This document shows, piece after piece, positions 40,629-53,981 of a stretch of 64,000 nucleotides of DNA. Made by a program: the position numbers and the translations under genes. Positions within the stretch are counted from its first letter, which is position 1; every line of letters starts with the position of its first letter. This stretch comes from a virus (Duplodnaviria; Caudoviricetes), in IMG/VR virus record IMGVR_UViG_3300027852_000032, positions 64,001-128,000 of that record. The stretch is one strand, 5' to 3'. Below the pieces are notes generated by a model. It was not told the DNA's origin, made no database searches, and worked only from the letters and a program-made list of their open reading frames with translations.

Positions 40629-41960
40629 TTAATTTTCTTTAGACCCTTTCCTCGCCCTTGATCTTGTTTTTGGTTTTTCTTTTTCTTTTTCTTCGGTTTT
40701 TGCCTTTGATCTTGATCTTGTTTTTGGTTTTTCTTCGGTTTTTGCCTTTGACCTTGATCTTGTTTTTGGTTTTTCTTTTTCTTCGGTTTTTGCCTTTGAT
40801 CTTGTTTTTGCCTTTGATCTTGATCTTGTTTTTGGTTTTTCTTCGGTTTTTGCCTTTGATCTTGATCTTGTTTTTGGTTTTTCTTCGGTTTTTGCTTTTT
40901 TCATTTCATCCTGCTTCTCAACACAGCGTTGAAAAATTTCTTCCTCGCAATTTTCGCAATCCCGAGAATCAAGATCACAGCCTGCACCAAATTCATTACC
41001 TACAGGGCAAATATCGTCTGATTCACTTTCCCAAGGACCATCACCCTCCTGCTCCTGATCACAGCCTGCACCAAATTCATCACCTTCCTGCCCATCATCT
41101 GATCCACTTTCCCAAGGGTCACCACCCTCCTGCTCCTGATCATCGCCGGGACCATCACCTTCCTGCCCACCGTCTGGGTCCATGCCAAGATGGGCTCTTG
41201 CAATTTCCTCATAAGTCGAAATAACCATCATTTTATCTAAAGGATAGACTTTGTCCAGTATGCTCTCTTCGTACTGATCTCTTTCTTTAAACGAAATTGA
41301 ATGATATTCAATAAAGGTATTTTTACCCAATCTTTTCTCACGCCCCTTGAACTCGACACTGGAGCCCATTTCCAAGTCGCTAAAGGTAATAATACCTTCG
41401 TCATCTGTTTCCATCGCTTCTTGCAGGATTTCTTCAAAAAGGTAATAAGAAACATCTTCCCATAATTGGACGGGATCTCCTTCCCCTTCGTAGTCGTAAA
41501 CATTATAAAAACATCTCCAGCTCGCTTTTAAGGAGTCAACCTTCTCTTTATCTTGCTCGCTTTTTTCTTTGTCCCATTCAGCATATAACTCTTCGCAAAT
41601 AGGACATTTTTTCCCGAAAGCCATTCTGGGGCATACGAAAATATCGTTGTTTTCTCCTATGTTACGATGAATAGGAATCTCAAGCTTATAATCCGTAAAC
41701 CCGACATCAAGCCCAATTACACTGCCTGAAACACTCTTCAAATCCTTATACCATTCTTGGGTAATCTCAAAAGGAAGAATATCAATATAATTCACCTCTC
41801 TTCCTGAGCCCGGCTCGTACCTAATTATTTTCCTATCACCCGCTTTTGAAAAATCTAAGGCTGATTTCCTCCCTAATCCTTTTTGACCTCTTTCTGTTAC
41901 CCCTTTTTTAGTCCTGTTCTTAAGAGCCTCTCTTCTTTGGGCTGCTGATACTCTTGGCAT
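40629..41960 (-). CDS. T4 gp32-like single-stranded DNA-binding protein with repetitive C-terminal extension
   Basis: IDILPF, H...G......CP......CPICE zinc motif, YNV; located among recombination genes. Confidence 0.7.
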   Translation of the reverse strand: MPRVSAAQRREALKNRTKKGVTERGQKGLGRKSALDFSKAGDRKIIRYEPGSGREVNYIDILPFEITQEWYKDLKSVSGSVIGLDVGFTDYKLEIPIHRNIGENNDIFVCPRMAFGKKCPICEELYAEWDKEKSEQDKEKVDSLKASWRCFYNVYDYEGEGDPVQLWEDVSYYLFEEILQEAMETDDEGIITFSDLEMGSSVEFKGREKRLGKNTFIEYHSISFKERDQYEESILDKVYPLDKMMVISTYEEIARAHLGMDPDGGQEGDGPGDDQEQEGGDPWESGSDDGQEGDEFGAGCDQEQEGDGPWESESDDICPVGNEFGAGCDLDSRDCENCEEEIFQRCVEKQDEMKKAKTEEKPKTRSRSKAKTEEKPKTRSRSKAKTRSKAKTEEKEKPKTRSRSKAKTEEKPKTRSRSKAKTEEKEKEKPKTRSRARKGSKEN

Positions 41961-42100: not shown

Positions 42101-42637
42101 TTATTTTTTCTTTTTCTTTTTGTTCATAGCTGCTCTCACTGCTTTTGTATTTTCATCTTTGTTTTTGGCCCCGATACTCTTTTTCGGATCAATCTGTTTT
42201 TTCTCTACAGGAACAGAAAAATAATCCGCCAGCCACAATTTAACTTCATTTTCAAGTGCAGTTTTTCTATCATCGAAAGCTTGTACGGCATTTTTTGCCA
42301 TACTCAAATCGTACTCATCACTAATCAATTCATTTTGCAAAAAAGATAATTCTTTTTTTGCAGAAGAATCTTCTGACAAACCAGCCACCACCGCTTCTAT
42401 CTGCTGCATCGTGTACTTTGGGAACCTCTCTTTGGCTTGTAAAATGAACCTTGAAAGTTCATCCGTCACTGCGGATTTCTTTAAACCAATTGATAATTTT
42501 TTCTGTTTGCAAACTTTATCAAGATGAGAAACCTCGGCAGCGTATTTATACCTGAAAGACGCATGGTTTTTCCACTCTTCTTGTAAATCATCAAGGTCTA
42601 TTTTCATTTCTTCTTCAAAATTAAATTTTTTTTCCAT
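42101..42637 (-). CDS. UvsY-like recombination mediator
   Basis: ID..DL.EEW, helical coiled coil, RK.ALEN.V.L...YFS; next to SSB and RecA. Confidence 0.55.
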   Translation of the reverse strand: MEKKFNFEEEMKIDLDDLQEEWKNHASFRYKYAAEVSHLDKVCKQKKLSIGLKKSAVTDELSRFILQAKERFPKYTMQQIEAVVAGLSEDSSAKKELSFLQNELISDEYDLSMAKNAVQAFDDRKTALENEVKLWLADYFSVPVEKKQIDPKKSIGAKNKDENTKAVRAAMNKKKKKK

Positions 42638-42797: not shown

Positions 42798-43733
42798 CTA
42801 TTCTAAAGATTGATATGTTGCCAGAACAATCCCGGGCATACCTGAGTAAAATGAAGGCTCTTTAAAAAGATCGATAATTAATGCGGCTTGAGGATCCCCT
42901 CCGTTCAACAAGACGGCGGACATATACCCTAAAATGGCTCTCCTGAACTTTTCAGGATCAGTTCCCTTCAGCTTTTTCAAAATTGAAGACGCTTTTTTCC
43001 AACTGGAACCTTTGAGCATTGCTTGACAAAGTTCTCTCACATCTTTTTCTTCTACCTTTGCATTTTTAACCGCACCGAGCATCTCTTCTTCAGGAAGATC
43101 AATGACCTGATCTAACGTCACTAATGCTTGCCGAGGGCAGCCATCAGAAACCTCAACAATTTCATCTTTTACATCATCAGGTATACCAACGTCCTCTTCT
43201 GTCGAAACCCAATTTAATAGCTGATAAAGCCCTTTATCGTTTACATTCTCAACCTCAAAAGTAGAGCACCTGTTAAGGATCGTCTTGAGCAATTTCTCTG
43301 GCTCAGTCGTGCAAAGAAGGAAGTATGTGTGTTCGGGGGAATCCTCTAACGCTTTAAGCAACGAATTTTGAAAATCTTTTGTTGCTTGATGAACTTCATC
43401 AAGGAGCCAAACTCTACACTCAGAAATCGCAGGATGATAATGCATTGTTTGCATTATTGATCTGGCGGTATCTATCCCTCTGTTGTTACTTGCGTTAATC
43501 TCGATAAAGTCCCCGTTTGGCTCATCATTAATCTTTTCGGGGCAGCCTAATTTTTCGGCAACTATCCTTGCTAACGTTGTTTTCCCGCACCCGCTCTGGC
43601 CTGAAAATAACATAGCGTGAGGAATATTTTCTTTTTCCCGAGACAGAATAGATTTCAAACTTGAGATAACGCCTTTATTTCCAATGACCTCTTCAAAACT
43701 TTGGGGTCTGTAATCTATATGTAAACTTCCCAT
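42798..43733 (-). CDS. Clamp loader, DnaX (gamma/tau)-like AAA+ ATPase
   Basis: YRPQSFEEVIG, GQSGCGKTT, LDEVH, NSLLKALE, TILNRC, GCPR. Confidence 0.92.
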   Translation of the reverse strand: MGSLHIDYRPQSFEEVIGNKGVISSLKSILSREKENIPHAMLFSGQSGCGKTTLARIVAEKLGCPEKINDEPNGDFIEINASNNRGIDTARSIMQTMHYHPAISECRVWLLDEVHQATKDFQNSLLKALEDSPEHTYFLLCTTEPEKLLKTILNRCSTFEVENVNDKGLYQLLNWVSTEEDVGIPDDVKDEIVEVSDGCPRQALVTLDQVIDLPEEEMLGAVKNAKVEEKDVRELCQAMLKGSSWKKASSILKKLKGTDPEKFRRAILGYMSAVLLNGGDPQAALIIDLFKEPSFYSGMPGIVLATYQSLE

Positions 43734-43737
43734 ATTT

Positions 43738-46700
43738 TTATTTCCTTTTTTCCAATAAACTCACTTTATTTACGAAGTTTTCAATCCCTTTTTGAAAAGG
43801 AATTGAATTGTCTTTTTTACTTTTCAAAACAAAAGAGGGATCGACGCACCAACAACACCAAGCCCCGATGCTTTCCACCCATTCTGTTTCCCCACTCATC
43901 TCTAAAATTCCCTCTTTTCGCCCTGTTAAAGAGTAAAGAGCCGTATCTCCGCAAGCAAGAATAATTCTGGATTGTATTTTTCTCGATTCTTCGTGCAACC
44001 AACGATGACACGAATCAATTTCAAAATGAGTTGGTTTTTTTGTTTGGCTCGGCCAGCAACGGCAACAATGGGTAATATGAAAAAACCTTCGAGAATAACC
44101 ATACTTTTTTAATTCTTTCCATAACAAATCTCCCGCCCGACCAACACCCCCTTTTTTCTCTTCGTCCTCAATTCTTCCCGGGAACCCTAACAGTATTATT
44201 GCATTATATACTCCCAAAGAAGATAAGATCGCTCTATTTTTTACATATTTTCTTAAATCACAATTATTGCAACGGAAAACCTTATCTTCAACCCTAAATC
44301 TTTTTCTTTTAATGAGGTTATCGGGAATTTCAGATGACTCAAGATTTAAACTTGCAAAATCAGGTAAATCCTTTAAAGAAATATTCTCCTCAAACAATTC
44401 TACTAACTGTGAATATTTTTCAATTTTACTTCCTTGCAAATCAATATGAGGGAAATATTTACTCAGAACAGATACAGGTAAAATCGCATCTATTTCATCA
44501 ACACATAAATCTAATAATATTTCATCAAATCGTGTGTTTGAAGTTTCTTTTACGACCTGACTTTTAAAAAAACCTTGGAGCCTATTTTTTCTAACAGGCT
44601 CTAAACACTTAGAGGCATTATTTTCCCCGATCCCATTAATTTCAATAAATGGGATATATAGGGTACCCCCTATAAACCTCCATTCTTTTGCATTTGAAAA
44701 ATTCCTTTTAGGGGTAATAATCATATACCCCTGTTGTCTGACCTCAGATAACAAAGAATTTTTATGTTTGTTTGGATCAGTTGCCTTTTCATTCCATTCT
44801 CCATATGTAAGGCTTGCAGCAAAAAATTCTTTTTCGTAATGTGTTTTAAGATATGCCGTTTGATACGCAATTAAAGCGTATGCAGTCGCATGACTTTTAT
44901 TAAACCCATAACTTGACCATTTTAAAAGACCCTCCCAAAACTCCTCCGCCTCCTTTTGGGAGAAAGTTTTCATCTTCCTGCACCCCTGCGAAAATTGCTC
45001 CCAAAACGGTTTAAACTCTTTTGGGTCTCTTTTTTTGCCGATGACCTTTCGAATTTTATCGGCTATTGATTCGCTCAGCCCTGCTACTCTAGAAATAACT
45101 TGCATAACTTGTTCTTGGTACACCAGCAATCCATATGTTTCTTTTGTTACCTCCTCATAAATAGGATGTAAAGGTTTCCATTTTTGCCCATGCTTTCTTT
45201 TTACATATTCTTCTGTCATTCCACTATCGGTCGGTCCTGGCCGAGCTAAAGCAATTCCTGCGACAATATCCATAAATGAATGTATTTCCATTTTTTTGCA
45301 AAGTTCGGTGCAGGAACGCCCCGACAATTGGAACATGCCTGAAGTTTTTCCAGATGTAATTTTATCAAAGGTTTCTTTATCTTCTATCGGAATTTTATCA
45401 AAAGAGAACTCAATTTGTTTGTAATCTTTATATTTTTCTTCGAACTCAACTTCCATAATTTTCAAAATCAAATAACGCCCTGTTACAGGATCTTGAAAAA
45501 GGCCAGTTGAACTACAATCATCGTTAATGAGTCGGCGGCATTCCGACAAAACGGAAAGGGTTGAAAGTCCAAGTATGTCTAATTTCATCAACCCCATGTA
45601 CTCGCTATCTTCCATATCCCAATTACAAACAATTCTATCATTTCTTTTGACCAAAACACATTTTCCTGCGGTCGTTAAATCCTCTTTTGAAACAACAACG
45701 GCGGCAGCATGGGCACCTGCACCTCTTATTTGCCCCTCCATTTTCAATATCAAGCGAACTACTTTCGGGTATTTTGCAGCGAAATATCTACCTTCCTCTG
45801 TATTATCGATGGAAGATTGGATAGCGCTACCCTCAATATGTTCTCCCTTTCTTATTGAGTTCGCGAAAAAATTGGTATCTTTTTGGGAAACCTCCATCAC
45901 CCTGCAAACATCTCTAATTGCCGCTCTGGACTGCATCCTCATAACTGTTGAAATACCACAGGTATTATTTTTTCCGTAAACCTCTTTTATTCGAAGAATG
46001 ACCTCTTTTCTATACCTCTTCTCAAAGTCAATATCAATATCAGGCCAGTCCCCTCGATCTTCAGAAATAAACCGGCTAAAAGACAGGCCGAACACAATTG
46101 GGTCAACTTGAGTGATTCCGAGAAGATAAGCGATAAGTGACCCCCCTACACTGCCTCTGCCCGGTCCGACCATTATCCCTTTTTTTCTCGACCAGTCAAT
46201 TAAATCGTGGACAATAAGGAAATATCTTTCAAACTTTTTCTCCGTAATTAATTTGAGCTCTTGGGAATATCTTTTTTGGTACTCAGCAGAAAAGACCTCT
46301 GTTCCAAATATTTTTAGATATCCTTGCGTACACAAATCACCTAACACTTTTTTTTCACTCTGCTTTTGAATTCCTGGAGGTTTTGGCAAAGATATTTCTT
46401 TTTCCGAAAGTTTAAATTTAGAACATTGTTCAGCAATCTTTATCGTGTTTTTCATTGCTTGAATCGCGGTATCTTTTGACCAATCTTTTTGATCTTCAAA
46501 AGCCTGTAACATCTCACCCGCTGTCCTCAAATGAAGACCTTTAAACCCAAAAGACCATCTTGCGGGATCTTTCCATTTCGCCCTTCTATTGATCGCGAGT
46601 AACATATCTTGTGATTCCCATTCATCTTCTTTTGTATAATGACAATCATTCGTCGCGATGAAAGGAATATTTTTGTATTTTTTAGCCAATTTCTTTATTT

Positions 46701-47232
46701 TACTATGAATGTCTTTTTGCGATGGAATATTATGTGGCATTATTTCAAAATAAACATCCGTTTTTTTATCCAATTCTTTTAACAGGTCTTCTGCCCCAGG
46801 CAAATTCAAGAATGATCCTGAACAAGCAGTAGAAATAATCAACCCCGACAAATCAGAATTCAAAAGCAGATTATAATCAATTCTGGGGGAATAATAAAAA
46901 CCGGATAAATTCGCTTCCGTCAAGAGAGAGCAAAGGGTTTTCCATCCGTCTTCGTTTGCAACAAACAAGCTGATGTGTCCTTTTTTTTCTTTTTGCTTAA
47001 TATGTCTGTCAGGAACGATATAGGCTTCACACCCTAAAACATGATTAATATTTTGTTTTTCGCATTCTTTTTGCCATTGCAAAAGGCCATCAATATTCCC
47101 ATGATTTGTTAACCCTATATATTGAAAACCAAGATCCTTTGCTTCCTTTATATATTTTTGCGAAGATCCGTACCCGTCAAGATGCGAATGCTCTGAGTGT
47201 AAATGCAAATGTGCAAAATCTTTGTTATTCAC
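43738..47232 (-). CDS. dnaE: DNA polymerase III alpha subunit fused to a C-terminal family-4 UDG-like domain
   Basis: PHP motif HLHLHSEHS.LDG; GPGRGS.GGS; PDIDID; KLDILG; YQEQVM; YGFNKSHA. C-terminal CNNC...CCRC.P...C domain. Confidence 0.93.
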   Translation of the reverse strand: MNNKDFAHLHLHSEHSHLDGYGSSQKYIKEAKDLGFQYIGLTNHGNIDGLLQWQKECEKQNINHVLGCEAYIVPDRHIKQKEKKGHISLFVANEDGWKTLCSLLTEANLSGFYYSPRIDYNLLLNSDLSGLIISTACSGSFLNLPGAEDLLKELDKKTDVYFEIMPHNIPSQKDIHSKIKKLAKKYKNIPFIATNDCHYTKEDEWESQDMLLAINRRAKWKDPARWSFGFKGLHLRTAGEMLQAFEDQKDWSKDTAIQAMKNTIKIAEQCSKFKLSEKEISLPKPPGIQKQSEKKVLGDLCTQGYLKIFGTEVFSAEYQKRYSQELKLITEKKFERYFLIVHDLIDWSRKKGIMVGPGRGSVGGSLIAYLLGITQVDPIVFGLSFSRFISEDRGDWPDIDIDFEKRYRKEVILRIKEVYGKNNTCGISTVMRMQSRAAIRDVCRVMEVSQKDTNFFANSIRKGEHIEGSAIQSSIDNTEEGRYFAAKYPKVVRLILKMEGQIRGAGAHAAAVVVSKEDLTTAGKCVLVKRNDRIVCNWDMEDSEYMGLMKLDILGLSTLSVLSECRRLINDDCSSTGLFQDPVTGRYLILKIMEVEFEEKYKDYKQIEFSFDKIPIEDKETFDKITSGKTSGMFQLSGRSCTELCKKMEIHSFMDIVAGIALARPGPTDSGMTEEYVKRKHGQKWKPLHPIYEEVTKETYGLLVYQEQVMQVISRVAGLSESIADKIRKVIGKKRDPKEFKPFWEQFSQGCRKMKTFSQKEAEEFWEGLLKWSSYGFNKSHATAYALIAYQTAYLKTHYEKEFFAASLTYGEWNEKATDPNKHKNSLLSEVRQQGYMIITPKRNFSNAKEWRFIGGTLYIPFIEINGIGENNASKCLEPVRKNRLQGFFKSQVVKETSNTRFDEILLDLCVDEIDAILPVSVLSKYFPHIDLQGSKIEKYSQLVELFEENISLKDLPDFASLNLESSEIPDNLIKRKRFRVEDKVFRCNNCDLRKYVKNRAILSSLGVYNAIILLGFPGRIEDEEKKGGVGRAGDLLWKELKKYGYSRRFFHITHCCRCWPSQTKKPTHFEIDSCHRWLHEESRKIQSRIILACGDTALYSLTGRKEGILEMSGETEWVESIGAWCCWCVDPSFVLKSKKDNSIPFQKGIENFVNKVSLLEKRK

Positions 47233-47259: not shown

Positions 47260-48279
47260 TTAAGAAGACAAACAAAGGGCATGTTCAAAACCTTTCCCTG
47301 TAAAAAGCAAGCGATCCCCTATAACCATAGATGTAGATTTACCCAATACCTCAACCAAAAATCCAGGGTGGGCTCTCACATCGATACCTTTACCTTTGTA
47401 ATTGACTTTGATCTCATCGGAAACAGAACCATGTTTCCCTTTCCCTGTACATACAATTTTCCCTTCCCCAATTTTTAAATCAACCACCCGATCCAAATCA
47501 AAATCAGCTATTACCAAAGAAGAAACTCTGTCGACCATCTCTCCAAAAGAAGAGGGAAGCTTTATTTTTTTTCCTTTCACAACAAAAAAATCATCTATAG
47601 CGGAGGGGTAAGGTTTCCCAGAGTAAGTTCTGCAAGAAAAAAAGGTTTTATCTTTATTAGAAAAATGTAACCATCCATCTGCACTTATAGCGACTTTACA
47701 AATATCATACCCTTTTAACTCTTTGGCGGAAATAGCAGGGAGTAAAAAAGAACCATCAAAAGAAGCTTTCATTTTCTGCTTTGTGGCTCTATAAGAATCG
47801 GAGGAAAAAACATATTTCCCGGAAATATTTAAGCAAGATAATTCGGGTATATTCATATTTTTAGAAACGGAAAAAAGCCCTAATTCAATAGCGGTATTAA
47901 AATCAGAGGGAAGGTCTTTCCAGTCAGAAGACTTATCTGCCGGCCTTTTAATTTTTACAATTTTAATCTCTTTATCAATTTTTATGGAGGCTTTTAATGT
48001 CTCTCCCGTAATAACAAAAGCATCGTCCGTCTGGTTAATTCCAATTTCTTTATCAACCATTTTCTTTATCAAGTTATAAAACTCTGAAGCTTTCACAGCG
48101 CCCATGAGACCTGTTTTGATTTCCTGAAAAATTGCGATGTCGTCGTTATAAGTTCTTATTGAGTTCTTTTCAAAAATAAAATGAGTAGACTGTTCAATAA
48201 TTTCATCATTACTTAATCCCGGTTTCACTTTATCTAAAACAGAAAGTAATTCGTCTCTCAATATGATCTTTTTTGGCAT
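47260..48279 (-). CDS. Sliding clamp (DnaN/beta-like)
   Basis: 339 aa; SSDSYR motif in the middle domain; next to DnaE and clamp loader. Confidence 0.75.
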   Translation of the reverse strand: MPKKIILRDELLSVLDKVKPGLSNDEIIEQSTHFIFEKNSIRTYNDDIAIFQEIKTGLMGAVKASEFYNLIKKMVDKEIGINQTDDAFVITGETLKASIKIDKEIKIVKIKRPADKSSDWKDLPSDFNTAIELGLFSVSKNMNIPELSCLNISGKYVFSSDSYRATKQKMKASFDGSFLLPAISAKELKGYDICKVAISADGWLHFSNKDKTFFSCRTYSGKPYPSAIDDFFVVKGKKIKLPSSFGEMVDRVSSLVIADFDLDRVVDLKIGEGKIVCTGKGKHGSVSDEIKVNYKGKGIDVRAHPGFLVEVLGKSTSMVIGDRLLFTGKGFEHALCLSS

Positions 48280-48280
48280 T

Positions 48281-49303
48281 TTACTTTTCCTTTTTCAATA
48301 ATTGTAAATAATGATCCCATGCGTCTTTTTGTGTTCCTTTTTTCAAAACATAATAATACGAAAACAGAAAAAGAACTTTTTTTGGATTTGCTCTTAATAT
48401 AGCTTTTTCAACAAAAGGAAGCGTGTGTCTACATACAGTCGCGAAAGCTATGTTATTTTTAACTTCCTTTTGAAGTTGAAGAAAATAAAAAATATTCCAC
48501 GCCGCCCTTTCTTTATAGCTTTTTCTCATCTCCTCAAAATCAAATCCGTAATCAGTGATGATTTGTTCTATCATTTTTTTCCATTCAAAAGGGCGCGCAT
48601 CGAACAACCTTTTGTTTTTGCCTTCCTCTTGAGGTATGTCGAAAAAAGATAAGGTTTTTCGAGAATCTTCGATCTTCTTTCGAGAAGAAATATTAATGAC
48701 TAAAGGGGTCGATTTCCAAACAAACTTTTTACTTTTGATAGCTCCAGGAACATAAATACCCCCGTACGCCGTTGATTGCCTCCATGACCCGCTATCAACA
48801 CTCTCCCAAGGGAAATTATTCATCAGCCTAAAAGACGTCGCTGCGTACCCATGGAACTTAACAAGGGGTTTTCCTTTAGAGTCACAAAGGATCTTCATAC
48901 ACCTCTTTAGCCATTCCGCTCTGACTGGGGTGATTTTATCATTTGCAGGAGAAATTCCTATAAACTTGGGTCCAAAATCCTTCAATTTTTGCAACCATTT
49001 GAAATCCTCTCCTTGATGGAAAATGTGCATCAGTTTATCTTTTGAAACTTTTTTTTTCAACATGTATTGATAGTTATCCCACCCTTTTTCAGCTGACCCC
49101 TCAATATCATCTTTCGTCAAAACTTTCTGCCCAAATACTCCGGGGATAACGTCTAAATTAGCAATATGAGATAACTGCCCTTGGTGTTCTTTTGCAAAAT
49201 CAATATAAGAGTCTATGTCAATTTCCACCCGCTTTGTCCAGGCTGTAAAAGCCCCCGAATCCAACATTAGTTCAACCTTACTTTTTGAAGGTGCTCGTGA
49301 CAT
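48281..49303 (-). CDS. dpdA: DpdA/TGT-like DNA-guanine transglycosylase
   Basis: LDSGAF, LDVIPG, FHQGE, FHGYA, SVDSGSW TGT-fold motifs; adjacent to que genes. Confidence 0.75.
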   Translation of the reverse strand: MSRAPSKSKVELMLDSGAFTAWTKRVEIDIDSYIDFAKEHQGQLSHIANLDVIPGVFGQKVLTKDDIEGSAEKGWDNYQYMLKKKVSKDKLMHIFHQGEDFKWLQKLKDFGPKFIGISPANDKITPVRAEWLKRCMKILCDSKGKPLVKFHGYAATSFRLMNNFPWESVDSGSWRQSTAYGGIYVPGAIKSKKFVWKSTPLVINISSRKKIEDSRKTLSFFDIPQEEGKNKRLFDARPFEWKKMIEQIITDYGFDFEEMRKSYKERAAWNIFYFLQLQKEVKNNIAFATVCRHTLPFVEKAILRANPKKVLFLFSYYYVLKKGTQKDAWDHYLQLLKKEK

Positions 49304-49682
49304 TTATTTTCACCCCTCCTCTCGCATTAAATTCACCCGTGACAGTTAATTCGATAGGGGAGCAAAGACGGACAAGATCATCCCTTATCAAGTTAACGAT
49401 AGTCTCCATAAAACCTTGATAATTTCTATAAGCGAAAAAGTACAATTTGAGGCTCTTTGACTCTATACAAAGTTTATCAGGTACATAATCAATTTTTATT
49501 GTCGCGAAATCAGGTTGCCCGGTTTTAGGACAACAACTGGTAAACTCCGGGAAAATAAGATTGACTTCATACCCATAACCTGTATACCTGTTTTCAAACG
49601 CCTCAAGAATCCCTTCCGGCTTTTCATATTCGTATTCAGTTCTTTCTGATCCTAAATGTTTTAGCTCTTGGCCTTCTTTCAT
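49278..49682 (-). CDS. queF: PreQ0 reductase QueF (unimodular)
   Basis: PEFTSCCPKTGQPDF, QueF motif ESKSLKLY, FNARGG. Confidence 0.92.
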   Translation of the reverse strand: MKEGQELKHLGSERTEYEYEKPEGILEAFENRYTGYGYEVNLIFPEFTSCCPKTGQPDFATIKIDYVPDKLCIESKSLKLYFFAYRNYQGFMETIVNLIRDDLVRLCSPIELTVTGEFNARGGVKINVTSTFKK

Positions 49683-50590
49683 TTTTTCATCCTCGCTATG
49701 AATTCATCTTTACACCCATCTTTATTCTCTGAGAAATACCCTGTAGCCGATATGACTTCAAAAGGACTATTGAACTTTTTTACTCCCCTCATTTCTTTGC
49801 ACAAATGCCTTGCACTCATGACTAATATCATTCCTTTTGAGTTGATCTTTTCGTCCAGGTGATTGACAATATCAAAAACAAGTCTTTCTGCTATTTGCAA
49901 TCTTGCTGAAAAGTAATCAACTACCCTTGCAATTTTACTGGCTCCAATTAACAAGTCAGAGGGAATATACCCGAAGCTATACTCACCAAAAAAGGGTAAC
50001 ATATGGTGCTCACAATATGAAAAGAAATACCCCTCATCCCTCAACATCGTGTCGTACTTGACTCCATCTGAACCATCGTTCGCGAAAACAGTCACTTTTG
50101 GAAGACAAGCAGGGTTATATCCCTTAAAGGTTTCTTTCCACATTTTAGTGACCCTTTTCGGGGTATCTTTTAATCCCGGGCGATTAGGGTTTTCCCCAAT
50201 TACCTGGATCATTCTGGTCACAGCATCCTCGGCCGGATTTTCTTTTGATTCTTTTTCCCAAAAAAACTCAACCCATCCATGCGCCATCTGGGCAAAAATA
50301 AACGGGTGCAAAACCAACTCGTTTTTTTTATACAAACAAGCAAAATCATTATTGGGGTATCTTTCTCTTGTTTCTCCCGAATCAACTATATCGTCAACAA
50401 CCAATGTATTTTTTGTAACATCTTTAGCACTGACTAAAGGTTTTTTTAACAAAGCCGATAATGCTAAAGCGACATAGACGCCCCCCCGAGGAACACCATA
50501 TATATTTGAGTATCTTAAATTTGCCGCTGAAATATTACTTGCCAAACAACCAACAAGATAATTGAATTTTTCCAGATTACAAACCTCCAT
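49679..50590 (-). CDS. folE: Phosphoribosyltransferase - GTP cyclohydrolase I fusion
   Basis: N-half: GVPRGG and VVDDIVDSGET (PRPP loop), F.WE. C-half: GL.DTPKRV, SYCEHHMLPF, SKIAR, RLQI.ERL, HLC..MRG. Confidence 0.92.
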   Translation of the reverse strand: MEVCNLEKFNYLVGCLASNISAANLRYSNIYGVPRGGVYVALALSALLKKPLVSAKDVTKNTLVVDDIVDSGETRERYPNNDFACLYKKNELVLHPFIFAQMAHGWVEFFWEKESKENPAEDAVTRMIQVIGENPNRPGLKDTPKRVTKMWKETFKGYNPACLPKVTVFANDGSDGVKYDTMLRDEGYFFSYCEHHMLPFFGEYSFGYIPSDLLIGASKIARVVDYFSARLQIAERLVFDIVNHLDEKINSKGMILVMSARHLCKEMRGVKKFNSPFEVISATGYFSENKDGCKDEFIARMKK

Positions 50591-51284
50591 TATTTTTTAC
50601 CCCCTCAAAATATAATCTTCGAACCAATGGGTCTTGTACCCCTGCTCTTGAAAAACCATCTTCCCTTAATTTGCAAGCAGGGCACTTGCCACATGGGGGA
50701 ACTTGCCCTTCGTAACAAGTATGACTATAAGCCAAAGCATCCATGCACCCAGGCAAAGATTTTGCCATTTCAACCGCTTCTTTTTTATCTTTATTCATTA
50801 ATGGGGTATGAATACAAAAGCCATTTCTCGAAGAACCAAAACCTCTATTCAACGTCTGTTGCAAAGAGGTAATTGATTCTTGTCTGCAATCAGGGTACCC
50901 AGAAGAATCAGTCTGACAAACGCCCGTCACAATACTTGATATTTGATGCTTATAAGCAAGGGCTGCGGCAATTGTTAAGAAAATAATGTTTCTCCCGGGA
51001 ACAAAAGATGCAGGTAAATCTTTATCTATTACATGAGGATCCGAGACCTCCCCGCCATCAACCAAAGCCGAATTGCCAACTTTTCGGAATAGATCTGTCT
51101 CAAAAAACCGATAAGGGACATTCGCCAGTTTCGCAATTTTTCTGGCGGACTCTATTTCTATCGCATGCCTTTGGCTGTAATAAATATTAAGAGCAAGAAC
51201 TTTCCCGAATATTCTTTTCGCCCAGAACAAACACGTCGTTGAATCTTGTCCACCAGATAAAAGAACAATTGCTTTTATACTCAT
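50577..51284 (-). CDS. queC: 7-cyano-7-deazaguanine synthase QueC
   Basis: LLSGGQDS, VPGRN, YPDCR, TCY.G...CGKCPAC..R. Confidence 0.95.
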   Translation of the reverse strand: MSIKAIVLLSGGQDSTTCLFWAKRIFGKVLALNIYYSQRHAIEIESARKIAKLANVPYRFFETDLFRKVGNSALVDGGEVSDPHVIDKDLPASFVPGRNIIFLTIAAALAYKHQISSIVTGVCQTDSSGYPDCRQESITSLQQTLNRGFGSSRNGFCIHTPLMNKDKKEAVEMAKSLPGCMDALAYSHTCYEGQVPPCGKCPACKLREDGFSRAGVQDPLVRRLYFEGVKNNGGL

Positions 51285-51292
51285 TTTAACTC

Positions 51293-51850
51293 CTATTTAC
51301 TTTCGCGAGGTTTTACTAATCTTCCAACTTCCTCCAAACACCGAACCACCTTTTTTACATCAGACAATAATGTCAAGATAGTGCTATCGGTACAGGTCAA
51401 GCCGTCTTCATCCAAATGCTTACGAATTTGATCTTTTGTAATTTTGTCGTTCGCGCAAATCAACTTACAAATTTTCGCTGTTACAGACACCTTTTTTTTG
51501 GGTTTGGATTTAGCGGCTGGGGTATTATTAGGATCAGGATCAGGGTCGGTATCAGGATCAGGATCAGGGTCAGTATCAGGATCAGAATCAGGATCAGGGT
51601 CGGAATCAGGGTCGGGATCAGGGGCGGGATCGGTATCAGGGGCTGGGGGAATATCAGCTCCAAGGCCAATCAAAACAGACCTCGTCTCATCAGAAAGATA
51701 ATCTCCTTCTTGAAGGGATTTGGCGGCTTCCAAAATATCTTTTCGAAGAGAAGCAACAGAAATTTTTCTCCCTGTTTTTATAGATTCTTCAAAAAAATCA
51801 CTTATTTCTTTTGCAGCTTCTTCTAATTGTTTTTTTGTAGCTCTTCTCAT
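51293..51850 (-). CDS. Two-domain hypothetical protein with (Asp-Pro)n linker
   Basis: Helical N-domain, ~40-aa DP repeat, possible winged-helix C-domain; GAGGG RBS. Confidence 0.65.
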   Translation of the reverse strand: MRRATKKQLEEAAKEISDFFEESIKTGRKISVASLRKDILEAAKSLQEGDYLSDETRSVLIGLGADIPPAPDTDPAPDPDPDSDPDPDSDPDTDPDPDPDTDPDPDPNNTPAAKSKPKKKVSVTAKICKLICANDKITKDQIRKHLDEDGLTCTDSTILTLLSDVKKVVRCLEEVGRLVKPRESK

Positions 51851-51855
51851 TGTTT

Positions 51856-52070
51856 CCCTCTTATATATTTATTTATTTTTAAGCCCCCAGTAAAGGGGGC
51901 GACAATAATTATATTCTATCTTATTCGTGTTTTATTATATTCTATCTTATTTGCGTTTTATTATATTTTGGCGATGTCTCAGTATCTCATTTTATCCCCC
52001 TCTTATATATTTATTTATTTTTAAGCCCCCAGTAAAGGGGGCGACAATAATTATACTCTGTCTTGTTCGT
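51856..52070. repeat. Direct repeat (~70 bp x2, offset 142 bp) containing a GCCCCC-AGTAAA-GGGGGC hairpin
   Basis: 51856-51928 is nearly identical to 51998-52070. Confidence 0.92.
51910..51990 (-). pseudogene. Internally deleted relic of the adjacent DUF262-like gene
   Basis: Starts ATGAGATACTGAGACAT versus ATGAGATACTCAGACAT; ends ACGAATAAGATAGAATATAA versus ACGAACAAGACAGAGTATAA. Confidence 0.7.
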
Positions 52071-52578
52071 CTTCCAAAAGGTTTCTTACCTGTTGAATCT
52101 CAAGAGCAGAATGAACTCTCCCACCTTCATTTAACTCAATGTACCATTTCAAAACATCAGCTTTTTCTGGAAGATTATCGATAAACCATTTGAACCGACA
52201 AGTCTTGGGCATTTTCCCTTTTATTTCACTGTAATAAGCAAGACAAAAAACAGGAAACTCATCTGCAAGAAAATCCCTAACCGCTGTTACTCTTTGAAGA
52301 CCATCAATAATTTGATACTGCACTTCTTGATCACCTATCCGCCCTGAACGATTACAAGAAACTCTATCAGCGTCAAGACCACCTTGAAGTTTATACTCTA
52401 CATATGCGATACTTTCTGCCTTTGTCCAAGTATTCTCTTTCAAAAAATCACGGCTGAGGTCACCTTCAATGGAAGAGTCTTCTATTATAGTAGAAATATG
52501 TTTTTCAAGATCTTCCCATTTAACATCACAAGAATGACGGCTGCTATTTTCAAATTTGTTTATGTCTGAGTATCTCAT
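52051..52578 (-). CDS. DUF262 / ParB-Srx-like domain protein
   Basis: WT......Y, IIDGLQRVTA, LNEGG motifs. Confidence 0.75.
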   Translation of the reverse strand: MRYSDINKFENSSRHSCDVKWEDLEKHISTIIEDSSIEGDLSRDFLKENTWTKAESIAYVEYKLQGGLDADRVSCNRSGRIGDQEVQYQIIDGLQRVTAVRDFLADEFPVFCLAYYSEIKGKMPKTCRFKWFIDNLPEKADVLKWYIELNEGGRVHSALEIQQVRNLLEDEQDRV

Positions 52579-52633
52579 TTTATTTTCCCCTTTTGTTTAA
52601 TTAATTAATAATACCAACGTTTATCTTATAAAC

Positions 52634-52693
52634 AATATAAACAATATAAAGAATATAGTCAACCTCAGTTATAGCCGGTTATAGCCGGTTATG
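52634..52693 (-). promoter_or_regulatory. Sigma70-type promoter with upstream decamer repeats
   Basis: TTGACT-17-TATATT; TTATAGCCGG repeats (+ strand) upstream of the -35. Confidence 0.8.
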
Positions 52694-52839
52694 GATAACT
52701 ATATACGATTAGAAAGATAGAACCGTTTATTTCTTTAATTAACTAAAAAGTTCATTTAATTTAGTTTTTCTTTCTTTTTAGTTAACATTTTTACTATATT
52801 TACTATACAAAATCCCTTCTCTTCTTTTAGATATTCATT

Positions 52840-53496
52840 TTATAAAAGCAAATTATTTTTAATTTCATCTACCTTGATCAACTTATGAATTTGAATATTT
52901 AAAACAATATCCTTACACCCATATTTAATCATCTCTTCGGCCAGCCACAAAGCGTTATTCTTTCCGCCATTCATCATGGGGCTTAAAGCGTAATTCGCTC
53001 TACAGGCATCTTTCTTCAAAATATCAATAAAATTAATAGAGCTAATAAAATCACAACGATCAATTATTACAAATTTAATCCAGTCTTTTTCTGTTAACCG
53101 CCTATGATTTTCTAAACACATATAATCAGGATTCGCTAATTTATAATCAAGAACCCACCCCAAATCGCTTGATTCAATTTCTGGAAAGGGAAGGCTCCCA
53201 TTTGTTTCTACCGAAACAACATTTTTTTTATAAAGCAAAGCCTCAATTAACTCGGCCGTCTCTCTTTGCAATAAAGGCTCCCCTCCTGTAATCGTAACTT
53301 TTCCTTTAGGGATGAGGTCAACAATTTGGGAAACAGACATCTCTTTTTTATTGGTCAATTTTCTTGCCTGGGGCGTATCGCAATAAGTACAATTTAAATT
53401 ACACCCTTGAAAACGAATAAAAGTTGTAAGAGCCCCTTGCCCCTTAAAGTTCACCTCTCCGTCAATACCCGTGAATATTTCATTTATATATAACAT
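52840..53496 (-). CDS. queE: 7-carboxy-7-deazaguanine synthase QueE (radical SAM)
   Basis: INEIF.GIDGE, FIRFQGCNLNCTYCDT, TGGEP, ETNG, QIHK. Confidence 0.93.
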   Translation of the reverse strand: MLYINEIFTGIDGEVNFKGQGALTTFIRFQGCNLNCTYCDTPQARKLTNKKEMSVSQIVDLIPKGKVTITGGEPLLQRETAELIEALLYKKNVVSVETNGSLPFPEIESSDLGWVLDYKLANPDYMCLENHRRLTEKDWIKFVIIDRCDFISSINFIDILKKDACRANYALSPMMNGGKNNALWLAEEMIKYGCKDIVLNIQIHKLIKVDEIKNNLLL

Positions 53497-53873
53497 TATT
53501 TTGAAAGCCCCTTCACCCATGTTGCATAATTAAAAGATGTTTCCCAAACTCTTACTTTGACTACAAAAACATCATGAGGCAAAAGTTTTTGGATAGCTTC
53601 TGAAAAACAAAGGGATAATACTTCAGCCGTTGGATTATGAAAAAAAACATTTAGGCAGGAATGATCATATGTATCTATAATACTTCTCTTCACGATTTCT
53701 TTTAAATTGTTAAAATCTATTATCATTCCCGCTTCTGGCCCTGTAGTTTTTATTTCTCCAGTCACAGTCACCTCAAGTTTAAAATTATGGCCATGGTCAT
53801 TTTTACATTTTCCTTCATGAGATGGGAGATAATGAGACGCTGCGAATTCAAAAATCTTAGTAACATTTACCAT
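53496..53873 (-). CDS. queD: 6-carboxytetrahydropterin synthase QueD
   Basis: FAASH, KC...HGH, GMIIDF, DH..LN, PTAE, WET. Confidence 0.95.
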   Translation of the reverse strand: MVNVTKIFEFAASHYLPSHEGKCKNDHGHNFKLEVTVTGEIKTTGPEAGMIIDFNNLKEIVKRSIIDTYDHSCLNVFFHNPTAEVLSLCFSEAIQKLLPHDVFVVKVRVWETSFNYATWVKGLSK

Positions 53874-53981
53874 TTTTTTTACTTCCTTTTTAGTCTGAGT
53901 TTTCTTAAGTTTTTTCAAGTATTTTTACTTACATTATATTATACAAAATCAATTTTCTTTTTTTAAGTATTTATCATTTTT

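Follow-up and report, generated by a model that had tools for sequence, protein, structure and literature searches.

Repeated loss of the uracil pocket in the uracil-DNA glycosylase fold fused to phage DnaE polymerases

Introduction

Uracil-DNA glycosylase (UDG) folds have been found fused to DNA polymerases of several kinds. In the C family, the extra polymerase DnaEX of some Yersinia pestis and Salmonella enterica strains carries an archaeal-type UDG (PF03167) that replaces the oligonucleotide-binding (OB) and C-terminal (CTD) domains (Timinskas, Balvociute, Timinskas and Venclovas, 2014, Nucleic Acids Research 42:1393; PMC3919608). In the A family, the SP15-like polymerases of YerA41 and phiLo possess an active UDG which, as seen by cryo-EM, contacts the template before it reaches the active site (2026, Nucleic Acids Research; PMC13697223). 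The N4-like family-A polymerases are described, in the work of Czernecki et al. as related in PMC13697223, as having a UDG domain without catalytic residues. For the UDG-like domains of SPO1 and T5, a role in processivity has been proposed (Kazlauskas and Venclovas, 2011; PMC3201878). The present study deals with a fusion of this sort, dnaE::UDG, encoded on the minus strand of a 64,000-nucleotide stretch of phage DNA. This whole stretch, called here the window, corresponds to bases 64001-128000 of the 136,909-bp IMG/VR virus record IMGVR_UViG_3300027852_000032 (Caudoviricetes), judged 96% complete.

The last ~200 residues of the window DnaE are a true family-4 iron-sulfur (Fe-S) UDG fold. Its uracil pocket is degenerate, as is that of other members of the family in which the fold itself is kept, and a non-catalytic role of the domain within the replicase is considered below.

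A family-4 UDG fold at the C-terminus of DnaE

The 1164-residue protein is a DnaE-type C-family polymerase. It scores 697 bits against TIGR00594, for a cut-off of 434, and the polymerase catalytic motifs PDIDIDF (residues 397-403) and KLDILGL (residues 550-556) are both found inside the catalytic core. With 697 bits, it stays under the equivalog cut-off of 1002 and falls outside the DnaE1 type, which has the OB domain and the tau-binding CTD. Alignment with the E. coli-type DnaE model NF004226 ends at residue 879, that is position 845 of the 1146 positions of the model, and neither Pfam nor NCBIfam detects an OB or a tau-binding domain in the window DnaE. The UDG domain stands where cellular DnaE has these two domains. 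An identical copy of the protein is present in an independent assembly from another sequencing run, so that an assembly artefact is excluded.

The identity of the C-terminal domain is supported by sequence models and by structure prediction. The Pfam UDG model (PF03167) matches residues 1018-1141 (E 1.4e-11; 45.1 bits for a cut-off of 24.3), and the NCBIfam models of family-4 UDG, UdgX and archaeal type-4 UDG match residues ~980-1140 at 58-68 bits. TIGR00758 gives 64-68.5 bits for a cut-off of 125.3; this cut-off is not discriminating because relatives with intact motifs also remain below it (76-101 bits). A phmmer search against PDB sequences retrieved the UDGs of T. maritima (1L9G/1VK2; E 5e-12), T. 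thermophilus (1UI0; E 3.5e-10) and S. tokodaii (4ZBX). The AlphaFold2 model of residues 962-1164 has a predicted local distance difference test score (pLDDT) of 93.7 and a predicted template-modelling score (pTM) of 0.91. Using Foldseek, it superimposes on T. maritima UDG 1L9G with a TM-score of 0.80-0.85 and a root-mean-square deviation of 2.1 Å; UdgX, 1UI0 and 4ZBX come next, together with a weak match to the phiLo polymerase (9QHS). Cysteines 988, 991, 1059 and 1075 align with all four cluster ligands of 1L9G and 1UI0, which delineates a predicted Fe-S cluster site.

A domain of this kind had been recognised in the initial annotation, in the place of the OB and tau-binding region and with a span of 43738-44290 (residue 981 to the stop). 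Pfam, NCBIfam and PDB matches, the AlphaFold2 model and Foldseek all agree with that proposal. The strings that it quoted are found at their expected places, including GRAGDLL (residues 1031-1037) and ILACGDTA (residues 1091-1098), as are the altered motifs LGFPG, GGVG, TH and DPS.

Loss of the uracil pocket

In family-4 UDGs, motif A is defined as GE(A/G)PG. Two residues, Asn in TNAV and His in motif B, are invariably hydrogen-bonded to uracil and drive its conversion to the uracilate anion; the third position of motif A lines the pocket, and its enlargement to Gln reduces excision (PMC10359453). The phmmer alignment pairs GEGPG, PFVG, N and HPS of the solved enzymes with G-FPG, GGVG, H and DPS in the window protein. 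Hence, the features by which family 4 is recognised, GE(A/G)PG in motif A, the Asn, the stacking Phe and HPS in motif B, are all changed. Glycine 1029 occupies the position which we take to be that of the Phe stacking on uracil. With the hydrogen-bonding Asn and His gone, in addition to the motif-A Glu and the stacking-Phe position, excision of uracil by the window domain is very unlikely, as judged from sequence. The initial annotation had likewise held the domain to be non-catalytic. Moreover, the bulky F1017 at the third position of motif A probably plugs what remains of the pocket.

The DnaE::UDG family and its recurrent inactivation

Relatives were collected in two ways. In the first, the 203-residue window domain was used as the query of an exhaustive HMMER protein search, with 6023 proteins retrieved up to E<=0.001, of which 399 reach E<=1e-10 and 75 reach E<=1e-30. 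The 150 best matches were examined further: the domain is at the extreme C-terminus of the protein, a recognisable DnaE precedes it in 109 of them and the remainder are short fragments. The 130 UDG domains with full coverage were aligned. In the second, IMG/VR was scanned with a pattern seeded by an 8-sequence alignment. It yielded 123 stretches with a relative, of which 80 loci were kept, making 81 with one fetched earlier. At two motif positions, the scan pattern was restricted to H/D and N/H, and this set is consequently biased towards intact copies. DnaE lies directly upstream of the UDG domain in 76 of the 81 loci, and the conserved gene order is beta clamp, DnaE::UDG, clamp loader, gp32-like single-stranded DNA-binding protein (SSB) and RecA.

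The family consensus derived from the 130 aligned domains is GEAPG, GFVG, TN and HP[AS]. All four pocket residues (E, F, N and H) are kept in 108 members, and the window copy is the only one from which all four are missing. The four cluster Cys are invariant or nearly so, the third being absent in one member. Among the 21 columns conserved in at least 90% of the members, the window domain retains 18; the three that it misses are precisely E, N and H.

The intact relatives from uncultured phages (P0003, P0008, P0010, P0026, P0053; loci L003-L082) have the same fusion, at the same position and in the same gene order as the window. Their UDG domains are 36-49% identical to that of the window, and the p-distance of the DnaE core between the window and its nearest full-length members is ~0.49-0.54 (about 46-51% identity). 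Nevertheless, they retain GEAPG, F, N and HP[AS], in contrast to LGFPG, G, H and DPS in the window copy. This includes P0003, the closest full-length relative of the window.

A tree of 77 rows was calculated on the C-terminal half of the DnaE core, UDG columns being excluded. On this tree, the near relatives of the window are intact (P0026, P0053, P0047), degenerate (P0082) or devoid of the stacking Phe (P0015). The 12 degenerate rows require 11 state changes, at least 7 of which are forced by well-supported branches. Loss of the pocket has therefore been repeated and independent, at least 7 times.

The inactivation is also patterned. When the 15 degenerate members are compared, the only columns to have lost their conservation are those of motif A (positions 1, 3 and 5), E61, the stacking F68, N94, T105 (the Thr of the KTP loop), H170 and V41; the Cys of the cluster and about thirty columns of the scaffold match the intact members in conservation. 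The third position of motif A is taken by a bulky residue (F, Y or M) in 9 of these 15 members, but in no intact member out of 115 (Fisher test, 2e-10). Of 8 pairs that are phylogenetically independent, 5-6 show the same trend and none the reverse (p about 0.03). On another hand, N is replaced by H, T, S, Y or A and H by D, N, S, T or P according to the lineage, which looks like relaxation and not like a new, shared active site.

Two features of some members may be mentioned in addition. Inteins occur inside the UDG domain of P0040, P0073, P0112 and P0132; three of them are inserted directly after motif A (GEAPG/C...HN/S) and the remaining one at the third Fe-S Cys, which serves as the +1 residue. 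Inteins typically sit at functionally critical sites. In L069, L075, L077 and L078, motif A is GQDPG, so that a Gln-Asp pair characteristic of family-1 UNG is present on an Fe-S family-4 scaffold.

A probable non-catalytic role within the replicase

Catalysis has been lost repeatedly and the domain never, which suggests that the fold serves the replicase for some purpose beyond the removal of uracil. By analogy with known fusions, the following scenario may be envisaged. The ancestral state would be an active Fe-S glycosylase tethered to DnaE instead of the OB domain and CTD, and removing uracil at the fork. The intact relatives would presumably still excise uracil at the replisome, as shown for the UDG of phage family-A polymerases. 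In the window phage, the pocket is disabled, as the sequence shows, with F1017 in the pocket-lining site, while the cluster site and the scaffold have been maintained; the resulting pseudo-glycosylase would be kept for a non-catalytic job at the place of the OB domain and CTD. Overall, it appears rather probable that the window domain is a pseudo-glycosylase which the replicase retains as a structural or DNA-holding module, its inactivity and its role being both putative.

Several observations weigh against this interpretation. Family-5 UDGs are active without a polar residue in motif A, so that loss of the Glu is in itself no proof of inactivity; the case for inactivity is made from sequence and needs all four pocket changes jointly. 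DNA binding, or any other retained activity of the domain, is putative. The His to Asp change at position 1131 and an Asn to Asp change at position 1096 (GN in the family, GD here) put additional negative charge on loops which, in UDGs, are turned towards the DNA. The linker between the polymerase core and the UDG domain is long and poorly conserved, and a fixed, OB-like position by the template is not established. The frequency of intact motifs has to be taken from the HMMER set (the 108 members out of 130), which is unbiased, and not from the IMG/VR loci. Finally, the window is the only sampled member that joins QueF with a fully degenerate DnaE-borne UDG, a coincidence that is unexplained.

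The initial annotation had suggested a processivity module as one possible role. The non-catalytic character that goes with this suggestion is retained. The phage's own genes for a beta clamp and a clamp loader flank dnaE (Table 1), which makes a role in processivity alone less attractive here than for family-A enzymes that work without a clamp. In the linker, a candidate clamp-binding-like sequence, LQGFF (residues 885-889), was noticed. A conserved clamp-binding motif was dropped, since a Qxx[LMF]F-type pattern is found there in only 9 of 73 members.

Table 1. Features of the dnaE::UDG gene and of its surroundings in the window.
Feature	Position in the window	Strand	Basis or remark
dnaE::UDG gene	43738..47232	-	GTG start, 1164 codons and stop, reading frame without internal stops
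PHP domain, residues 8-166	46735..47211	-	Pfam PF02811, E 4.9e-29
Pol III alpha catalytic core (DNA_pol3_alpha), residues 296-555	45568..46347	-	Pfam PF07733, E 3e-77
Fingers domain, residues 600-753	44974..45435	-	Pfam PF17657, E 1.2e-43
Linker, residues ~880-961, poorly conserved	44350..44595	-	Past the last DnaE-model match; only 4 family members match it
Family-4 UDG-fold domain, residues 962-1164	43741..44349	-	Pfam, NCBIfam and PDB matches, AlphaFold2, Foldseek
Predicted Fe-S ligands Cys988 and Cys991 (CNNC, 988-991)	44260..44271	-	Align with CxxC of solved family-4 UDGs; 130/130 family members
Degenerate motif A LGFPG, L1015-G1019 (family GEAPG)	44176..44190	-	E to G1016, A to bulky F1017
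G1029 for stacking Phe (GGVG 1028-1031, family GFVG)	44146..44148	-	Alignment
H1055 for uracil-binding Asn (ITH 1053-1055; family TN, here TH)	44056..44070	-	Alignment
Predicted Fe-S ligand Cys1059, within CCRCWP 1056-1061	44056..44070 (span shared with H1055)	-	Alignment to solved family-4 UDGs
Predicted Fe-S ligand Cys1075	44008..44010	-	Alignment to solved family-4 UDGs
Motif B D1131-P-S (DPS 1131-1133; family HP[AS])	43840..43848	-	H to D, alignment
Clamp-loader subunit, Pol III delta'/gamma-like AAA+	42798..43733	-	Pfam PF13177, E 6e-25; 4 nt downstream of dnaE
Beta sliding-clamp homologue	47260..48279	-	phrog_947, E 3e-18; weak PF02768; immediately upstream of dnaE
7-Deazaguanine cluster (context only)	48281..53918	-	
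DpdA-like	48281-49303	-	phrog_887, E 1e-42
QueF	49278-49682	-	
FolE fusion	49679-50590	-	
QueC	50577-51284	-	
QueE	52840-53520	-	
QueD	53496-53918	-	
gp32-like SSB	40629-41960	-	
178-residue open reading frame	42101-42637	-	Just downstream of the clamp loader

The flanking genes bring to mind another possibility, in which the UDG fold would be a protein-protein adaptor. It would tether the polymerase to the clamp loader, the clamp, the SSB or the helicase, replacing the tau-binding CTD whose place it occupies, and catalysis would always have been secondary. A precedent is the poxvirus UDG, D4 or E4, a structural subunit of the holoenzyme according to works cited in PMC3201878 and PMC13697223. 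The order dnaE-clamp loader, with only 4 nt between the two genes in the window, is kept in 56 of the 81 related loci, and the scaffold is conserved in all degenerate lineages. However, several related loci carry DnaE::UDG with no clamp or clamp loader of the phage detectable nearby, and a surface patch specific to the fusion family was not identified. In addition, the clamp loader of the window phage is a short gamma/delta'-like protein of 311 residues, of which Pfam sees only the N-terminal AAA+ module; it is presumably too short to contain the polymerase-binding domains of tau. An adaptor role is considered unlikely.

Two other genes of this region deserve mention. The gp32-like SSB has a long acidic stretch rich in Gly, Asp and Glu, followed by a highly basic C-terminal tail made of tandem repeats (units KAKTEEKPKTRSRS). 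The 178-residue open reading frame is found at the same position in 11 related loci and could encode a second clamp-loader or replisome subunit.

One may also imagine that the domain is a functionless remnant, which persists since its removal would destabilise the polymerase or has not yet happened. All catalytic residues are gone, and no Xth or Nfo apurinic/apyrimidinic (AP) endonuclease and no ATP-dependent ligase, with which base excision repair could be completed, were found in the phage record. A divergence analysis bears on this idea. The UDG-to-core divergence ratio of the window is 1.16, for a family mean of 1.11 and a standard deviation of 0.04; this puts it sixth among 41, with other degenerate members in first, second and fifth place. 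The window UDG is slightly accelerated, nothing like free decay. The small size of this acceleration argues against a remnant, as do the 18 highly conserved columns and the four Cys that have been kept. Furthermore, throughout the at least 7 independent catalytic losses, the domain was never deleted or truncated, and convergence on a bulky residue at the third position of motif A suggests that the dead pocket is under selection. Even the SSU5-type phage-plasmids, after loss of cluster Cys, keep a recognisable fold. A mere remnant is improbable.

The deazaguanine cluster and the handling of uracil

The proximity of a 7-deazaguanine cluster had led, in the initial annotation, to the idea that the domain senses modified G or owes its existence to this cluster. 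Comparison with related loci goes against it. The residues E, F, N and H are intact in 17 of 17 IMG/VR loci having a DpdA-like gene upstream of DnaE::UDG, albeit in a set biased to intact copies, and also in P0003, which adjoins FolE, QueE and QueC. Among the 11 related records at least 90% complete that carry the fusion, a DpdA homologue is present in 6, and the other 5 have neither DpdA nor QueC. A fusion common in phages devoid of base modification had been named as an argument against the link, and these 5 records of 11 provide it in part.

QueF, which no DpdA-bearing relative out of 16 possesses above cut-off, leads to the same conclusion. Three IMG/VR relatives of the window QueF were found in loci with the same gene order, the polymerase there being of family A with its UDG at the N-terminus. 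In two of them, L088 and L089, the UDG motifs are intact (AEAPG or GEAPG, N, HPS); in the third, they are degenerate. A complete preQ1 pathway thus coexists with an intact polymerase-borne UDG, and association of a dead UDG with preQ1 synthesis through QueF is no rule. The link between the deazaguanine cluster and the dead UDG does not hold, and the domain is most probably not a 7-deazaguanine reader.

These loci reveal a swap between C-family and A-family polymerases, each version with its own UDG. The polymerases concerned are at L088:4789-7356, L090:2868-5468 and L089:12459-15787, in the order QueC, FolE, QueF, DpdA, beta clamp, polymerase, clamp loader, gp32 and RecA. In L089, the family-A polymerase gene is split, with an open reading frame for a TSCPD domain between the parts. 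Of the two polymerases that can occupy the same place in the syntenic module, each carries a UDG, C-terminal in DnaE and N-terminal in the family-A enzyme, which argues that replisomes of this type require a UDG borne by their replicase.

In a broader version of the base-reading idea, the domain would be a re-specified glycosylase or base reader, whose pocket, opened by two Gly and furnished with a new His and a new Asp, would accommodate a base other than uracil, such as G or preQ1-dG. It is true that N and H have been replaced by the polar H1055 and D1131 and not by hydrophobic residues, and that the domain retains its scaffold, its Fe-S site and a basic surface (net charge +7, family mean +3.7). 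Family-5 UDGs, which have no catalytic residue in motif A, excise hypoxanthine and xanthine, and the window is the only sampled DnaE::UDG member that also has QueF. However, the uracil-type motifs of the DpdA-cluster relatives and of L088 and L089, as well as the fusion in complete genomes without DpdA or QueC, are at odds with such a role. The replacing residues are unique to the window copy and differ in every other degenerate lineage, and F1017 is the plug-like change of other dead copies. Re-specification appears quite improbable. Hardly any credit can be given to the view that the pocket changes are adaptive, either for purine binding (G versus preQ1-dG) that couples replication to DpdA or through selection against a glycosylase whose abasic sites would be dangerous with the preQ1 amine, a speculative chemistry; the window is indeed the sole sampled DnaE::UDG with QueF, but two relatives with QueF and DpdA are intact.

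Uracil itself was also considered. A phage DNA containing uracil or modified T was rejected: ThyX is encoded, so that dTMP is made, and there is no ThyA-type enzyme. No other gene of the UDG superfamily was found in the phage record. The trimeric dUTPase (PF00692) is absent from the phage and from the 11 relatives at least 90% complete, all of which carry a replicase-borne UDG. The idea that UDG loss accompanies dUTPase loss was dropped, this distribution being not discriminating. The polymerase-borne UDG may be the way in which this lineage handles uracil.

Two neighbourhoods of related loci may point to other DNA modifications. At L085:5093-6136, in the syntenic deazaguanine cluster of P0082, a near relative with a UDG that is partly degenerate, a gene for a nitrilase-like CN_hydrolase is located between QueE and FolE, and QueF is not recorded; this suggests an end product differing from preQ0. 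In L002 (2176-3387), an adenylosuccinate-synthetase homologue (PF00709, possibly PurZ-like) is encoded ~7 kb upstream of the DnaE::UDG gene of P0015. It might mark a 2-aminoadenine genome copied by DnaE and not by a DpoZ-type polymerase.

Comparison with known systems

What the DnaE::UDG family brings to the subject is the repeated loss of catalysis without loss of the domain, accompanied by a convergent change that fills the pocket. A non-catalytic role of polymerase-bound UDGs thereby becomes testable in a simple phage system, and there is no further need to connect a dead UDG with deazaguanine DNA. No published assay of any DnaE::UDG protein was found in the literature.

With respect to the stand-alone family-4 UDGs (TM0511, that is 1L9G/1VK2; 1UI0; 4ZBX) and to UdgX, the window domain has the same fold and the same four-Cys site, but the E, F, N and H that they have in the uracil pocket are all replaced. 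UdgX is defined by GEQPG and by the R-loop KRRIH with its nucleophilic His (PMC10359453). The window domain is not of this type: TIGR03914 gives 61-66 bits for a cut-off of 190, and motif A is LGFPG instead of GEQPG.

The SPO1- and SP15-like polymerases share with the window a UDG fused to a phage replicase. However, their UDGs are active, on family-A enzymes and in T-modified genomes, whereas that of the window is inactive by its motifs, on DnaE and in a context of G modification. By analogy, the SP15-like enzymes would be the best model for the intact DnaE::UDG relatives. The N4-like polymerases resemble the window in having a dead UDG fold permanently fused to the replicative polymerase of a phage. 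In their case, the polymerase is of family A and the UDG N-terminal, as a result of a separate fusion event, whereas the window has a family-C polymerase with a C-terminal UDG.

The UDG of poxviruses (vaccinia D4, mpox E4) is a structural subunit of the polymerase holoenzyme, as stated in works cited in PMC3201878 and PMC13697223. The parallel with the window is that of a UDG fold as a structural part of a replicase, a role that is putative in the window. The poxvirus protein is a separate subunit, belongs to another UDG family, is still active and serves a B-family polymerase; the window differs in all these respects.

The closest described system is DnaEX, which has the same arrangement as the window, PHP, Pol3 core and then a PF03167-type UDG fold at the place of the OB domain and CTD. 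The E. coli D4 plasmid A (NZ_CP010144.1, 114 kb) is taken here to belong to the SSU5/pHCM2 lineage of DnaEX. Pfam and BLASTP do not detect a UDG in the tail of its DnaE, and only profile comparison gave a match: aligned by hhalign with the DnaE::UDG family profile, this C-terminus has a probability of 95% (E 2.6e-8), with the catalytic residues absent. The enterobacterial copy is far more eroded than that of the window, its third and fourth Cys being unaligned whereas the window keeps all four. Unlike it, the window belongs to a metagenomic phage family whose members are mostly intact. The fusion of DnaE with a UDG has been known since 2014, from one sentence in the literature, and the window is a further inactivated copy. 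Taken on its own, its significance is modest, as one more inactivated copy of a known polymerase-glycosylase fusion that is common in uncultured phages.

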